This document shows positions 11,041 to 37,173 of a stretch of DNA of 64,000 nt, piece after piece. A program made the translations under genes and the position numbers. The stretch lies in NCBI GenBank assembly GCA_000004695.1, contig CM000151.3, positions 3,520,001 through 3,584,000 of the forward strand, in the 5' to 3' direction. The notes beneath the pieces were generated by a model. The model searched no databases. It saw only the letters and a program-made list of their open reading frames with translations, and was not told the origin of the DNA. The stretch comes from Dictyostelium discoideum. Taxonomy: Eukaryota. Every line of letters starts with the position of its first letter. The first letter of the stretch is position 1.

Positions 11041-11219
11041 CCAAAATTTAATTAAATTTTTAAAGTTTAATTGTTTTGAAATTTCACAACGTTATCAATT
11101 AGAAATAATACTTTTATGGGAATTGGATTTTTTATTATTTTTAAAATTTTGAAAACTAATTATTTTTATTATTATTATTACTTTTTTTTTTATTTATTTA
11201 TTTTTTAATTATTATTTAT

Positions 11220-12033: not shown

Positions 12034-12377
12034 ATTGAATAAGATAATAATTTAATTATTGGTATACCATCAATATCACTCTCACCATTAATAACTAAAA
12101 AATCTAAATTTTTTGACCAAATATCTAATGATTTAAATAAAACTTCTTTTGATGGACAATATTCAGTAGAAATTGATAATACTTTTTGAACTCTTTTTCC
12201 AAATTCTTCAATTGATTCAACGGTTTGAAATCTTTTAAAATTAATTTTATATAATTTTAAATTAATCATTGTACTATTACTTTGATAAAGAGAATTTATA
12301 ATATCTAAAATTTGACTATTTTTTAAATTAATGTTTCTAACTATAAATTTTTTAAATATTATATTTTCTTTATTATT

Positions 12378-12408
<31 letters not shown>

Positions 12409-12959
12409 AGTTGTTGTTGATAATTAACTAATTTTTCAATACCTTTATTTGCTAAATTAAAATCAAAACAAACTTTAATACCATCTTTTTTATTTTTATA
12501 ATAAAATAATTCATCTGTATGATCAAAATGTAATTTTAATGTTTTTACATTTTCTTTTTTTATAATTGAAAATTTTCCAATTCTTTCAATAAAATCTTTT
12601 GATTCTGATGTTTTTATTTTTGTTGTCATTATTTCGGTGGTAGTATTATTATTATTATTATTATTATTAAAATTTTTTTCAAAATCTAAATTATAATTAA
12701 AATCAATTGAAACTGTTAAATTATTTGATAATGTTTTAAACCAATCATGATTCACTAATGCCAATGAAATCATTAATTCTTTAATTAACTTTTCATTATC
12801 TCTATAATCAATATCTTCAATTTTAATGAAATCAATTAATTTATTATTTCTATCAATATGTTTACATAATATTTTAATTATATATTTTTGAATATATAAT
12901 GGTAATTTTATAATTTTATTATTATTATTACTATTATTGTTAATATTGTCGGTTATCAT
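11220..12959 (-). CDS. Hypothetical protein, 579 aa. Paralog of 6533..8833 with shorter N/Q tracts and a (KE)n acidic-basic repeat.
   Basis: MITDNINNN...KLPLYIQKYIIKILCKHIDRNNKLID... C-terminal domain shared with the upstream paralog. Confidence 0.75.
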
Positions 12960-12988
12960 TTTGTGGTCATTTAAAAAATTGTTAATTT

Positions 12989-13027
<39 letters not shown>

Positions 13028-13420
13028 AATTCTTATTATTCTCAATGTCATAAAAACATTTTCATCGCCATATCGCAACATTTTTTAATAATATCTCCCA
13101 AACCATTTTTTTTTTTTTTTTTTTTTTTTCAAAACAATGGTTTATGAAAATTCCACAATTTGAATTTGTTTTGTTGAAAAATGAATATTTAAATTATTAA
13201 TCTTTAAAATTAAATCAAATTGTTAAATTTATAGATAAATATATATAAATCAAATTGAAGTTTAGTAACTTGCGAAAAACCTTACAAAATGTTGAATTTA
13301 TAAGTTATGCAATATAAATATATAAATAAAATATATGTTAAGAAAGAGATAATAATTACAACAAATAAAGAGTTTATTATTGTTATGAAAATTGTAAAAA
13401 CGAAAAACTGTTTATTTTTA

Positions 13421-26716: not shown

Positions 26717-27587
26717 AATTCAAAATGAATTAAAGAAAAGTTTAATTGAAAAAGATGATTTTAATTTTAAAATTGATGATGAAAATAAAATGAATACAAC
26801 ATTGAAATATATTGGTGGTGTTGATATTAGTTTTGTAAAAGATAATGATATTGATGCATGTGCATCATTAATTGTAATAGAATATCCATCATTGAAAATA
26901 GTTTATAAAGATATTGAATTTGTTAAATTAAGTGAATTATATATTCCAGGATTTTTAGCATTTAGAGAAACTCCTCATTTAATTAAATTAATTAATAAAT
27001 TAAAACAATCAATAACCTATAACCATTTATTACCTCAAATTATAATGATTGATGGTAATGGTATTCTACATCCACGTGGATTCGGTTTAGCTTCTCATTT
27101 AGGTGTTTTAATTGATATTCCAACAATCGGTGTTGGTAAAACTTTCTTTCATGTTGATGGTTTATCAACAAAAGAAATAAAATCAAAAGTTGAATCTGAA
27201 AGATTAAAATATTTATCAACAACAACTACCACTGATGTAACAACAACACCCTCACCCAATAATAATAAAAATAATAAAAATAATAAAATTAAAAACAATA
27301 ATAATAATATAAGAGAAGATATAAATATAGAAGTTCCATTAAAAGGTGAAAGTGGTAGAATTTGGGGTTCAGCAATATTAAGTAATAGTAACTGTAAGAA
27401 TCCAATTTATGTTTCAGTGGGACACCGAATTTCATTAGAGACAGCTTTAAAGGTTGTTAAATTAACTTCACCATACAGAGTACCTGAATCAATTAGACAA
27501 GCAGATTTATTATCAAGAGATTATATTAGATTAAATTTTAATAAAATACAAACCACTGCTACAACTACTACAACTACTACAAACTAA
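26717..27587 (+). CDS. Endonuclease V exon 2 (after a 109-nt intron). Total about 322 aa.
   Basis: [71 protein letters not shown] align with human ENDOV. N/T-rich insert. Confidence 0.85.
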
Positions 27588-28890: not shown

Positions 28891-28894
28891 TTAC

Positions 28895-29007
28895 AATGTT
28901 TTTTGTTTTCCACCTAAATGTGGATTATATTGTGGTTGTTGTGGTTGTTGTTGTTTAAAGTAATCTACTTGTCCATATACTGGAAAGTTAACATGTTCGT
29001 GTGACAT
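28895..29007 (-). CDS. psmB4: Proteasome subunit beta-7 (PSMB4-like) exon 1.
   Basis: MSHEHVNFPVYGQVDYFKQQQPQQPQYNPHLGGKQKT then GTAAAT donor. Confidence 0.75.
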
Positions 29008-29381
29008 TTTGTATGTTTAATATGTATTTGTGATGAAATAAAAAAAAAAAAATAAAAAAATAAAAAATGAAAAAATTAAAAAAAAAAAAATTTTGTGAAC
29101 AGCAAAAAATTTAATTAAAAAAAAAAAAAAAAATAAAAAAAAAAAAATAAAAAAAAAAAAAAATTAAAAAATAAATAAAAAAAAAAAAAAATTAAAATGG
29201 AGTTGCTTGGAAAAAAAAAAAAAAAAAAAAAATTATATATTTCTTTTTTTTTGAATGTATATTAAGATATATTATTATTAAAAAAATTATTATTTAGGTC
29301 AATTGTTTTTTTATTTATTTAATAAAAAAAAAAAAATTTTATTGATTTACTTTGTACTTTCATTTTTAATTTTATTATCAA

Positions 29382-29590
29382 TCAATTCTTTTGGATTACA
29401 AAAATTAAAATATAAATATATTTTTGGATTTCTTTGCATGTTGACAATACAAAATGAATCTTTAGCACTAAATCTCGTGACACTTTTATTTGGTTCAATA
29501 TATTGAATTTCACCCATTCTAAAATCAACTTCTTTAATAGGGTCATGGCTACGGCATTTAATTTCAAATGTATTTTTCCATTGTGTTCTT
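29382..29590 (-). CDS. Member 1 of a small ESFC(I/V)AN-motif gene family (TFEIKCRSHDPIKEVDFRMGEIQYIEPNKSVTRFSAKDSFCIVNMQRNPKIYLYFNFCNPKEL...). Start codon and any 5' exon unresolved.
   Basis: Frame differs from the six-frame track ORF. Homologous to 30001, 30540 and 31023 copies. Confidence 0.4.
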
Positions 29591-29684
29591 TATTTAATAA
29601 AATAAAATAAAAAAAAAAATATTTAAAAATTAATTAAAAGTATTATAAACTCTACAGATTATATTTTTTGAAATTAAATAAATG

Positions 29685-29717
<33 letters not shown>

Positions 29718-30000
29718 TATTTGATAAATAAGGAAATAATTTTAAAATAACCCTTTGTATAATTGTTTTCCAAATAAAGTTTTAATAAAGATCCCTCAAA
29801 TAATAATAATAAAAATTAACTTTATTTATCAACATTTTGGAAAATTATTTTGTTTAAAAAAAAAAAAATAATAATAAAAAATATAAACAGAAATTGAATG
29901 GTCAAAACAGAAAAAGTATCATATATTATTTGTAGTTCTTTCAATCATAATAGTCTTAATATTAATGTTATTTATCAACATTTTATTGTAACAATTAAAG

Positions 30001-30177
30001 ATGACTATTTTTTTTACAAACCATTATCAAAAGATTCAGATGGTAACTTTTGAAGATACTCATGCAAAAGAATCATTTTGTATAGCAAACATGGGTCTTT
30101 CTCCAAATGATTGTTTTTATTTTAAAAAATTACAAATATTAGAATTTTTAAAAAATGACCAATAAATCTCTCAGTAA
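30001..30177 (+). CDS. Member 2 (58 aa): MTIFFTNHYQKIQMVTFEDTHAKESFCIANMGLSPNDCFYFKKLQILEFLKNDQ.
   Basis: ATG-initiated ORF carrying the conserved D/E-rich-KESFCIAN core. Confidence 0.45.
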
Positions 30178-30539
30178 ATAAATTTTAATTTTAGTTTAGA
30201 AATGGTCTAATCTCTTTATTATGTTTATTAAATACCTTTTTTTTTTTTTTTTTTTTTTTTTTTATTTTGAATTTTAAAAAATTGTCAATGATAAATATTT
30301 GTAAAACAACTTAATTATTAAATATATAATTATATTGTTTTATTTTCAAACCTTTTAATATTAAAAGATTAAAATTAGAATTGGATAGTTATATCATACA
30401 AAGAAACTTAATTTTTAGTTTTAAAAAATAAAAATTTTAAAAAATTATAAAAATAAAAAATAGTGAAATTGTTTTGTTTATTTTTGTTATTTTTTAGTTT
30501 TAAATTCATTTTTTATAAAATGTAATACTTCACAAAGTT

Positions 30540-30790
30540 TAAAATGCAAACACAAATTTGGAGTACGATTTACATTTGCTATACAAAATGATTCTTTATA
30601 TGAGTATCTTGGGAAGTATCATCTGGTTCACAGTAATCGATTTGATAAATTTTCATTGTATTTGGAATACCATAATGGGAATTAATATTAGTACAGGAAA
30701 TTTCAAATGTTTTATTCACAATTTTAATATAAGGGGCAGTGATTATATCAAATCTTGGGTAGGAATTTGTGTCTTTTGAAAATAATTATT
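30540..30790 (-). pseudogene. Member 3, with a 1-nt deletion that separates ...IDYCEPDD from ESFCIANVNRTPNLCLHF.
   Basis: The nucleotide alignment with the 31023 copy shows agtttctcaagatac versus acttcccaagatac. Confidence 0.5.
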
Positions 30791-31022
30791 ATAAATAAAA
30801 CAATTCTTATTTTATAATTTTTGTTTACATTATTATTTTACTCAATTAAATTATTTTTATTCTTTATGGCAAATATATTAATTATTCATTTTATTTTAAA
30901 AAAAATATAAATAAAATAAAAAAATAAATAAATAAATAAAAAAATAAAAAAATAAAATAACCACAACTTCAAATAAAACAAAATTGAATAAGAAAAATTT
31001 AATTGTAAATTTATTTATTGAG

Positions 31023-31419
31023 TTATTTTTTTTTAAAAAACTTTAGCCCATCACAAGTTTTAAAAGCCAAACCAACCATTGGATTACAATTAACGTTTGC
31101 TACACAAAATGATTCTTTGTATGAGTATCTTGAGAAACTATCATCTGGTTCGCAATAATCAATTTCATGAATTACCATTACAGGAGAATAGTAGTTAGGG
31201 GCATTAAATGCAAGAAAGCTCAAAAGTTTTCTCTTGAATTTTAATATAAGGTTTAGAGTCTATTAATAATTTAGAGGGGTTATTTGAATTATTTGATAAT
31301 GGCTTGCAATAAAGTTCTTCCTCTTTAATTGATAATATAAAACTTTCACTAGTTATAGGAAATCGACCATTGACGTATGTTATAGATATAATATATGATA
31401 TATTATCAATGATGCCCAT
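31023..31419 (-). pseudogene. Member 4: two overlapping frames (…KTFELSCI* and FLAFNAPNYYSPVMVIHEIDYCEPDDSFSRYSYKESFCVANVNCNPMVGLAFKTCDGLKFF) separated by a frameshift.
   Basis: Colinear with the single-frame reading of the 30540 copy (…KTFEISCTNINSHYGIPNTMKIYQIDYCEPDD). Confidence 0.45.
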
Positions 31420-31740
31420 TTGTTTAATTATTGATTATTTTTTAATATTTTTTTTTTTTTTTATTTTTTCAATTAAGAAATTAAAATTTTATTATTTTAA
31501 TCTAAATTTTTTAGATGATAAATTACAAATTTGTATTTCGACTATTTATGGATAAACTTTTATTTATAAAAAAAGAATGAGATCATGGGTTTAATTACTT
31601 AAATTTTTAAAAAAAAAATACATTGGTCTATTTGATTTGTCAATTAATTGTAAAATAAAACATTACAATTGATCCTTATTAAAATTTATTTATTTTATTA
31701 TTATTTGTACAAAATTATTTTTTATTTTTTATTATTTATT

Positions 31741-32754
31741 TTATTGATTTAAGGTTAATTTACAATTTCTAATTGACTGTTTTTGAATACAATAACCAGT
31801 TGCGGCAGTATAACCAAAATAGGCAAATTTTGGGAAAGTTATATTTGCAGATGGTATTTCTATATTAGTTAATAAGATTTGACCATTATAAATGATTTTA
31901 ATTGATGAATTTAAATGATTATATTCAATTCTAACATTATTTGTATTATTTATAATTGAGTTATTTGTCATTGAATAACTATGAATTACATTTGTTAATA
32001 AATTATTATTATTATTTTTTGTTTTAATTATTATTTGATTTGAATTTGGTGAATTAATATTATCATTTAATGATGTTTTAAATTCAATTGCTAATATACC
32101 ACCATTTGCACTATTTAAATGATCATCATTATATTCTAATTGACCACCTTCTAATAGTTTATAATGTTGATATGATTGTGGTGACTCTTTTGAATTATGT
32201 AATATAAATGTTAAACCATCAGTACCATTTGTTTCAACAGTATATGTAAATTCATTTATCCAACTTTTATTTTCAATATTAATCTCTTTATTATAAAAAC
32301 ATGATCCAATCTTATCAGTTGTTGAATTTGTCAAAACCATCGTATTACAATTTTCCCATATTGTTGATCCATTAATAACACTATTTGATTCAATTAATCT
32401 ATAAATTGATGTTGATATTGTGTTTGGAATAATTGGTTGTGTTTGTTGTTGTGTTTGTTGAATTTGTTGTGTTTGTTGTTGTGTTTGTTGTTGTGTTTGT
32501 TGTTGTGTTAGTTGTTGTGTTTGTTGTTGTGTTTGTTTTGCAATAATTGGTTGTTGTTGAATATTATTATTTATGATTAATTTTGGTGATGATGATGAAA
32601 ATTTTGATTTTGAAATTGATTTTTGTGAGGTTGTTTTTTTTACTTTTTTATAAATTCTTGGTAATGGTGAGTAGAGTAATTCATGTAAGTCAAACAATTG
32701 GACTCTATTTCTTTTTGATAATTTGGTTGAACTTCTTGTTGCAATTTTAACCAT
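31741..32754 (-). CDS. Legume-type (L-type/ConA-like) lectin domain protein, 337 aa, with an N-terminal (TQQQ)n repeat.
   Basis: DGLTFILHNS (legume lectin DGLAFVL-like) and FGYTAATG (legume lectin beta signature VGFSA(A/S)TG). Confidence 0.6.
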   Translation of the reverse strand: MVKIATRSSTKLSKRNRVQLFDLHELLYSPLPRIYKKVKKTTSQKSISKSKFSSSSPKLIINNNIQQQPIIAKQTQQQTQQLTQQQTQQQTQQQTQQIQQTQQQTQPIIPNTISTSIYRLIESNSVINGSTIWENCNTMVLTNSTTDKIGSCFYNKEINIENKSWINEFTYTVETNGTDGLTFILHNSKESPQSYQHYKLLEGGQLEYNDDHLNSANGGILAIEFKTSLNDNINSPNSNQIIIKTKNNNNNLLTNVIHSYSMTNNSIINNTNNVRIEYNHLNSSIKIIYNGQILLTNIEIPSANITFPKFAYFGYTAATGYCIQKQSIRNCKLTLNQ

Positions 32755-36411: not shown

Positions 36412-37173
36412 ATGTCTACCCAAGGTTTAGTTCAACTCCTCGCAAATGCTCAATGCCATTTAAGAACCTCAACCAATTACAATGGTGTCCACACTCAATT
36501 TAATTCTGCCTTAAACTACAAAAACAATGGTACCAATACCATTGATGGTTCAGAAGCTTGGTGTTCATCAATCGTAGATACCAACCAATACATTGTTGCT
36601 GGTTGTGAAGTTCCACGTACTTTTATGTGTGTTGCTCTCCAAGGTCGTGGTGATGCTGATCAATGGGTTACATCATACAAAATCCGTTATTCATTAGATA
36701 ATGTTTCCTGGTTTGAATATCGTAATGGTGCTGCTGTTACTGGTGTAACTGATCGTAACACTGTTGTTAATCATTTCTTTGATACTCCAATTAGAGCTCG
36801 TTCAATTGCTATCCACCCATTAACCTGGAATGGTCACATTTCATTAAGATGTGAATTCTACACTCAACCAGTACAAAGCTCAGTCACTCAAGTTGGTGCA
36901 GATATTTACACTGGTGATAACTGTGCCTTAAATACCGGTTCAGGTAAACGTGAAGTTGTTGTCCCAGTTAAATTCCAATTTGAATTTGCTACTCTCCCAA
37001 AGGTTGCTCTCAACTTTGATCAAATCGATTGTACTGATGCCACCAATCAAACCCGTATTGGTGTCCAACCAAGAAATATTACCACCAAAGGTTTTGATTG
37101 TGTTTTCTACACTTGGAATGAAAACAAAGTTTACTCATTAAGAGCTGATTACATTGCTACCGCTTTGGAATAA
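36412..37173 (+). CDS. Discoidin I, third copy (253 aa). About 95% nucleotide identity to 1045..1806.
   Basis: [42 protein letters not shown]...ATALE. Confidence 0.95.

Follow-up and report, generated by a model that had tools for sequence, protein, structure and literature searches.

Evidence for a decayed tandem array of a taxon-restricted gene family on chromosome 2 of Dictyostelium discoideum

We describe here a 64,000-nucleotide stretch of Dictyostelium discoideum chromosome 2 (contig CM000151.3, positions 3,520,001 to 3,584,000; hereafter ‘the window’, whose first letter is position 1), which belongs to the AX4/AX2 lineage, has a GC content of ~20% and contains open reading frames (ORFs) with polyglutamine tracts. 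In the segment at 29347-31420 lie, very probably, four non-processed pseudogenes (of types A, D, inverted I and E) that together form a tandem array now wholly decayed; all are members of a taxon-restricted, single-exon family of proteins of ~133 (129-139) amino acids. The original prediction had placed here a cluster of four ‘tiny’ genes for Cys-containing micro-proteins, two of them frameshifted; the four related units, on both strands, are indeed present, but disabling lesions are found in all four copies, none is intact, and the functional unit in this family is a single-exon ORF of 129-139 codons. As no unit in the window is an intact gene, the short Cys-containing ORFs are to be seen as stop-to-stop pseudogene fragments.

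The units were checked by six-frame translation and by tblastn of reconstructed units against the window. With repaired copy 4 or copy 3 as the query, the better pairs matched the other units at E values of 1e-10 to 1e-14, and short pieces of copy 2 at 0.004-0.005; no further units were found elsewhere in the 64 kb, where no other tblastn match was better than E 0.1. All four share the core K(E/D)SFC(I/V)(A/V)N(V/M), much as had been proposed, and copies 3 and 4 have the motif IDYCEPDD, which takes the form IQYIEPNK in copy 1 and has been deleted from copy 2, where the downstream core survives. The units are as follows.

31023..31419, minus strand: copy 4, A-type pseudogene, nearly full length; native ATG at 31419, ancestral-frame stop at 31023-31025
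30487..30782, minus strand: copy 3, D-type pseudogene; ancestral-frame stop at 30487-30489
29898..30165, plus strand: copy 2, inverted I-type pseudogene; ATG at 29898, final-frame stop at 30163-30165
29347..29581, minus strand: copy 1, E-type pseudogene; native 5' context and ATG (29581-29579) kept, stop at 29347-29349

The window was compared with a set of assemblies: L001 (contig JBTAPE010000001.1 of assembly GCA_054883475.1), an independent long-read D. discoideum assembly from a laboratory strain, 99.6% identical to the window across 20.6 kb; L002 and L003, from isolates deposited as ‘D. discoideum’; L004 and L005, deposited as ‘cf. discoideum’; and L008, from D. citrinum. From their labels and divergence we infer that these are the genomes of Holland et al. 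2025 (PMC12745789), which comprise AX2-214, D. citrinum, two ‘possible cryptic species’ and two D. discoideum isolates that have diverged yet remain mating-compatible.

Repaired copy 4 begins MGIIDNISYIIS...KTFELSC, changes frame and continues FNAPNYY...IDYCEPDD...KESFCVANV...KKK, giving ~131 codons in total, and it matches P0001 at 77% amino-acid identity over 100% of its length (E 7.7e-58). When the DNA is aligned codon by codon with the A-type genes that are intact in L002 and L005, as well as with the A-type copy of L003, the frame change, directly after ...KTFELSC, resolves as a 5-bp deletion (TGCA[TATAT]TTTA) with its junction at 31208/31209, inside a run of AT repeats. Copy 3 has lost more: its ATG and first ~38 codons are absent or decayed, with homology beginning at FSKDTNSY..., and the 257 AT-rich nucleotides between 30992 and 30735 stand in place of 496 nt in L005. 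Alignment with the intact second gene of L005 (10765-11175, P0012) further places a 1-nt deletion at ~30613-30616, directly after EPDDT and ~20 nt upstream of the KESFC motif; tblastn recovers only residues 39-104 of the D-type protein. The single-nucleotide deletion reported for copy 3, and a frameshift at a different site in copy 4, are thus both upheld at the codon level. The 1-nt deletion also accounts for the peptide ‘TSQDTHIK’ that had been read in copy 3, which is an out-of-frame version of FPRYSYK, whilst the peptide put forward for homology searches, MTIFFTNHYQKIQMVTFEDTHA-KESFC..., proves to be a hybrid, the first 22 residues of which are an out-of-frame reading of ...DDYFFYKPLSKDSDGNF*RYSC, with the ancestral frame entered only at KESFC.

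The inverted copy 2, aligned with the intact inverted genes at L003 10621-11028 (minus strand; P0008) and L005 11552-11956 (minus strand), carries a 144-bp in-frame deletion with its junction at 30036/30037 and CA microhomology, flanked on either side by blastn matches, a TCA-to-TGA nonsense codon at 30051-30053, and an extra A inserted in the A-run at 30066-30069. Colinear blastn extends across this region, with window 30735-30037 corresponding to L005 10923-11667. Copy 1, compared directly at its junction with the E-type genes of L002 and L005, has lost 185 nt (junction 29571/29572, AAT microhomology), such that codon 4 is joined to codon 66; the native frame now reads MEKYI*, and 74 codons remain to the stop, matching P0010 at 87% identity (E 8.4e-39). 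Taken as a set, copies 1 and 4 bear one lesion each and copies 2 and 3 two or three, and the ratio of non-synonymous to synonymous substitution (dN/dS) of the retained segments against their orthologs is 0.4-0.65 (1.15 for copy 2), no higher than among intact genes. Because this ratio is not raised and lesion counts are unequal, the comparison suggests that the array may have been inactivated stepwise and in part recently. The copies occupy the ancestral locus, have flanks colinear with intact arrays and show no poly(A) tail or other hallmark of retroposition, and copies 1, 2 and 4 still have their ATG in its native 5' context, as expected of non-processed pseudogenes.

Further support for this reading comes from the intact relatives. 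Repaired copy 4 matches proteins of 132-140 amino acids in other genomes of the D. discoideum complex, and copy 1 matches proteins of 132-138 amino acids. Genomic contexts, together with a tblastn census of each locus, place the array in all lineages in one conserved slot, running from a lectin-like gene to a proteasome gene, with the following content.

L002: A, B, C, a 5'-truncated inverted I fragment and E; four intact
L003: A with an in-frame stop, B, C, inverted I and E; four intact
L005 (‘cf. discoideum’): A/C-like, D, inverted I and E; four intact
L004 (‘cf. discoideum’): an A fragment fused to the lectin gene by the gene caller, one intact C-like gene and an I fragment; no E
L008 (D. 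citrinum): E only, intact

The order in the window, counted from the lectin-like gene (A, D, inverted I, E), is that of L005, and the intact members are all uninterrupted single-exon ORFs of 129-139 codons. Named members, annotated as ‘hypothetical protein’, include ACTFIW_011830/011831, ACTFIR_009670/009671/009641, ACTFIZ_010830/010832/010861 and, in D. citrinum, ACTFIV_007145. The window copies resemble the family over the whole unit, including the TFE...IDYCEP...SFCxxN motifs, and share its syntenic position; with this family, typified by ACTFIW_011830 and ACTFIR_009670, they have TFE(I/L)(S/K)C, (I/Q)DYCEPD and SFC(V/I)(A/V)N in common, but the uninterrupted ORF from a native ATG that characterises a functional member is found in none of the four.

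Loss is recurrent across the clade, and other lineages hold independent dead copies: the A-type copy at L003:8128-8538 has an in-frame TAA (IDYC*PDD) masked by a gene-caller intron, L002:12447-12746 is an unannotated, 5'-truncated inverted copy, and L004:9298-9627 and 11092-11199 are the A and I fragments of a slot without E. In two lineages the 3' end of the lectin-like gene recurs, as a ~380-bp copy, within the array, between B and C (L002:11376-11740 and L003:9489-9824), and matches window 31715-32089 at 77-82% identity; the duplication that created extra units evidently took along part of the neighbouring gene, and this piece marks the duplication unit. With between one and five recognisable units per lineage, one inverted unit and independent pseudogenes in several lineages, the birth-and-death of a lineage-specific family, as first proposed, is supported.

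Four functional micro-protein genes of ~45-65 amino acids, two of them recently frameshifted, would be an unlikely alternative. There are ATG-initiated ORFs of 54-71 amino acids in the window, the AX4 annotation holds one protein-coding model here (P0009), and the dN/dS of the retained parts, as given above, does not exceed that of intact genes. However, the orthologs are single ORFs of 129-139 codons, no short form is conserved as such in other lineages, and the ends of the ORFs in the window coincide exactly with the mapped deletions, frameshifts or nonsense codon; moreover, part of the peptide originally read in copy 2, and exon 1 of the annotated gene, are out-of-frame or antisense readings.

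That annotated gene, the only one in AX4 at this locus (DDB_G0273161 = DDB_G0273911, UniProt Q556P9, 99 amino acids; P0009), is encoded by the window at 100% identity. Comparison of the P0009 sequence with the window ORF and with the frame-0 translation of copy 1 resolves its exons as follows.

30017..30076, minus strand: exon 1 of the DDB_G0273161/DDB_G0273911 model (MILLHEYLQKLPSESFDNGL), an antisense reading of copy 2, within the window ORF at 30014-30106 (minus strand)

Exon 2 (29587-29347) is truncated copy 1, reached by a ~430-nt splice, and its frame passes through the native ATG of copy 1 as ..Q-W... On these readings, DDB_G0273161 is a chimeric salvage model and not a true member of the family. 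ACTFIT_002822 (P0007) in the L001 assembly, in which the tail of copy 4 is fused to copy 3, is likewise a salvage model, joining two pseudogenes. The dead array is present twice in AX4, owing to the known duplication on chromosome 2 (PMC12745789). We found no papers on DDB_G0273161, DDB_G0273911 or DDB_G0290385, the last being a paralog discussed below.

It is very improbable that the genes are really intact and that their frameshifts reflect errors of sequencing or assembly in an AT- and homopolymer-rich genome. The differences between the window and L001 are mainly ones of homopolymer length, and the extra A of copy 2 does lie in an A-run; however, L001 shows every lesion, and across the 4 kb compared it is set apart from the window by only three single-nucleotide polymorphisms (SNPs) and by four homopolymers of unequal length, none of which coincides with a frameshift or a deletion. 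As this independent assembly has all of them, the lesions are real and not sequencing artefacts; nor are deletions of 5, 144 and 185 bp, or a substitution to TGA, the kind of change that homopolymer miscalling produces. Two of the three SNPs fall in copy 2 (window 30040-30100 against L001:11060-11130), a clustering that could be accidental, an effect of sequencing error or the outcome of neutral drift among the AX lineages.

We give similarly little weight to the units being non-genic dispersed repeats or transposon debris with chance ORFs. Several copies, on both strands and within 2 kb, without a known domain, might suggest as much, but only two fixed syntenic loci per genome carry copies, with none elsewhere in the 64 kb, and the ORFs have exon-like GC and stay open across lineages at synonymous divergence (dS) of up to ~0.4-0.5. 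Still less credible is the notion that the frame changes are introns and the copies intact split genes. Introns in Dictyostelium are short and AT-rich, and gene callers have bridged the fragments with them (P0007, P0009), but the intact orthologs are all uninterrupted, frame changes of -5, -1 and +1 nt leave no spare sequence for an intron, and the bridging ‘introns’ link different copies, or an antisense to a sense segment; we rejected this account on the uninterrupted orthologs and the nucleotide-level lesion alignments.

Are the intact relatives themselves genes? For each of 16 intact ORFs, no more than 1 in 20,000 shuffles matched for composition stays open; GC amounts to 24-28% in these ORFs, compared with 11% for the adjoining intergenic DNA; and the ORFs remain open between lineages separated by dS of up to ~0.4-0.5. 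Conservation is also patterned: the beta-strand segments containing TFE, IDYCEP and SFCxxN hardly change at all, and three loop segments vary greatly. On these sequence-based grounds we take the intact ORFs to be real coding sequence.

An AlphaFold2 model built from 14 sequences (pLDDT, the predicted local distance difference test score, 79.9; pTM, the predicted template modelling score, 0.74) has ~10 beta strands followed by a C-terminal helix, and the proteins of the family are apparently cytosolic and beta-rich. Foldseek, run against the PDB with a weak first model (pLDDT 59), returned GFP-like noise only (E > 0.1), and the predicted fold has no match among the solved structures of the PDB. 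The top Foldseek match of the model is the Ran-binding domain of RanBP2; the PH-like/Ran-binding-domain fold is a beta sandwich capped by a C-terminal helix, and the model for its part has ~10 strands and one helix. The absence of a recognisable domain, asserted in the original prediction, holds in Pfam and PDB searches, neither of which gave a consistent match: the window copies had no match in Pfam, 14 members gave only four different single-member chance matches, and a profile search of PDB sequences gave one chance match (E 0.56). The discoidin (F5/8C and H-lectin) and L-type-lectin profiles PF00754, PF09458 and PF18483 likewise do not match the family, whereas they do match its neighbours. 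An internal repeat, pairing the N-terminal ‘LYCK’ half with the ‘DYCEP’ half, was considered and rejected (hhalign probability 0.4%). By eye, we find neither signal peptide nor transmembrane segment, the N-termini (MEVIGNISYIIS..., MEKSSYLIYQDG...) having no hydrophobic h-region.

When 5.8 billion proteins were searched from word seeds, no member of the family was found outside the D. discoideum complex and D. citrinum; a profile run against 1.84 billion representative proteins gave seven matches, all from D. discoideum, ‘cf. discoideum’ or D. citrinum. The family is therefore lineage-specific, as had been claimed, and homologs do exist beyond the window, so that the original prediction is not refuted on that count. 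A second locus, adjoining an ASCC3-type helicase gene, holds a single-copy, ~30%-identical paralog (P0015-P0018) of the same length class (profile E 7.5e-14), represented by DDB_G0290385/Q54G59 on chromosome 5 of AX4 and by ACTFIY_001251, ACTFIW_008583 and ACTFIR_002495; it differs from the array family in being one gene, at a different locus, that lacks the P of the EP motif. As this second locus has no lectin neighbours, the co-location of the array with lectin genes is uninformative as to function. DDB_G0290385 is an uninterrupted ORF of 127 codons in the Logan contig L010 (L010:83-466); the 117-amino-acid AX4 model removes a 30-nt GT..AG stretch (GTAGAAATT...AAAG), and ACTFIT_001518 (99 amino acids) likewise excises pieces, so that the 30-nt ‘intron’ is likely to be a gene-prediction artefact. 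L010 also spans a neighbouring gene and intergenic sequence, and it terminates in A-runs; for this reason it is no evidence of transcription. In the AX4 lineage, DDB_G0290385 is thus probably the only family member to survive, while the chromosome 2 array is dead.

Synthesising these findings, we read the history of the array as follows. It grew by local duplication, with one unit inverted and, in some lineages, with the duplicated segment including the 3' end of the lectin-like gene; within the D. discoideum/D. citrinum clade, copy content differs from one lineage to another. Each copy in the NC4-derived AX4/AX2 lineage bears at least one disabling lesion, be it a deletion (two of them with short microhomology at the junction), a nonsense codon or a single-base indel in a short homopolymer run; the short Cys-containing ORFs are the leftovers between stops, and the annotated AX4 gene is a gene-finder chimera. 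We infer that no functional member of the family is encoded at the array locus in this strain; as NC4-derived strains have no functional array copy, the array would be dispensable for growth and development in the laboratory.

Several points weigh against this interpretation, or limit it. The pooled dN/dS of the intact orthologs is 0.80 (bootstrap 95% confidence interval 0.64-1.04), with pairwise values of 0.3-0.9 and 1.28 for the I-type, all estimated by NG86, which is rough in a genome so AT-biased; with protein-level constraint this weak, the case for calling the ORFs genes comes chiefly from their preservation, their composition and their conserved motifs. No homology supports a biochemical role for the family. 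Some residual function may persist in the 74-codon C-terminal remnant of copy 1 (which has an internal Met and a 56-amino-acid ORF) or in the annotated 99-amino-acid chimera. D. discoideum in the narrow sense is represented here by NC4-derived genomes only, namely the window and L001, so that the decay may be confined to the strain or may extend to the species.

As to function, we offer as a guess, held with low confidence, that the intact proteins are small, soluble, non-enzymatic binding modules with a conserved beta core (TFE, IDYCEP, SFCxxN) and fast-changing surface loops. Bolder, and in our estimation rather improbable, is the speculation that the family represents a new small beta-rich fold, either newly arisen in the discoideum/citrinum clade or evolving there at extreme speed, whose loops are under diversifying selection in conflict (with other strains, bacteria or symbionts), such that the loss in NC4 is a natural knockout with an overlooked phenotype.

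The array sits between conserved neighbours, which are, in window order, as follows.

26790-27587: endonuclease V gene
28891..29007, minus strand: first exon of a proteasome-subunit gene (gene start ~29007), one boundary of the array; its position matches the L001 gene at 12162-13399 (PF00227)
31741..32754, minus strand: L-type-lectin-like gene encoding a 337-amino-acid, Q-rich protein, the other boundary; ortholog of the 320-amino-acid protein that bounds the array in all lineages
Beyond the lectin-like gene, in order: an unknown gene of ~460-534 amino acids, a discoidin gene at 36412-37173 (plus strand) and a zinc-type alcohol dehydrogenase gene

The 337-amino-acid flanking protein has no Pfam match at E<=1, and its 320-amino-acid ortholog in L002 matches PF18483 (legume-lectin beta-barrel) at E 1.2e-9, with 38.8 bits against a gathering score of 78.3; the product of 31741-32754 is accordingly described here as a predicted, divergent L-type-lectin-like protein with a polyglutamine insert that varies by lineage. 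At least two full discoidin-type genes (253 amino acids, F5/8 type C and H-type lectin) lie in the window, at 1045-1806 and 36412-37173, both on the plus strand, with a third, partial copy at the window edge (1-329); the copies are 94-96% identical in DNA and, with the L-type-lectin-like gene, make this a lectin-rich neighbourhood.

Across window 20000-42000, identity to the isolates deposited as ‘D. discoideum’ (L002/L003) is ~87-88% over 20 kb, housekeeping genes included; over the same 20 kb it is ~84-89% to ‘cf. discoideum’ (L004, L005) and ~72-84% to D. citrinum. We rejected hyper-divergence of, or balancing selection on, the array, given that the ~12% divergence from L002/L003 is uniform across the 20 kb; it is a matter of deep lineage divergence and not specific to the array. 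Holland et al. (PMC12745789) describe the isolates as genetically diverged, some being possible cryptic species, and the pattern seen here is consistent with deep lineages and possible cryptic species (PMC12745789; bioRxiv 10.1101/2025.10.22.684067).

A parallel may be drawn with the tgrB/tgrC allorecognition cluster (bioRxiv 10.1101/2025.10.22.684067; PMC12745789), where tandemly arranged genes have likewise gained copies, undergone inversion and left pseudogenes in particular lineages, with high dN/dS and with both conserved and hypervariable segments. There is, however, no relation in sequence or domain: Tgr proteins are large transmembrane proteins with Ig/IPT repeats, whereas members of the array family are small and, by eye, without signal peptide or transmembrane segment. 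Nothing links the array family to recognition.

Finally, the analysis flags three annotations for revision, namely the DDB_G0273161/DDB_G0273911 chimera, the likely spurious 30-nt intron of DDB_G0290385 and the ACTFIT_002822 fusion. What is new is an unnamed family with an unmatched predicted fold; the evolutionary process itself is ordinary, and we regard this as a modest observation in evolutionary genomics, albeit one that offers a compact and fully resolved case of birth-and-death in a taxon-restricted family, with expansion possibly from one copy, inversion and independent inactivations by microhomology deletion. It also indicates that the standard laboratory lineage is without a small gene array that related wild lineages retain. 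Should the family act in ecological or social interactions, AX2 and AX4 would be natural nulls, and the wild isolates would provide intact alleles for complementation.

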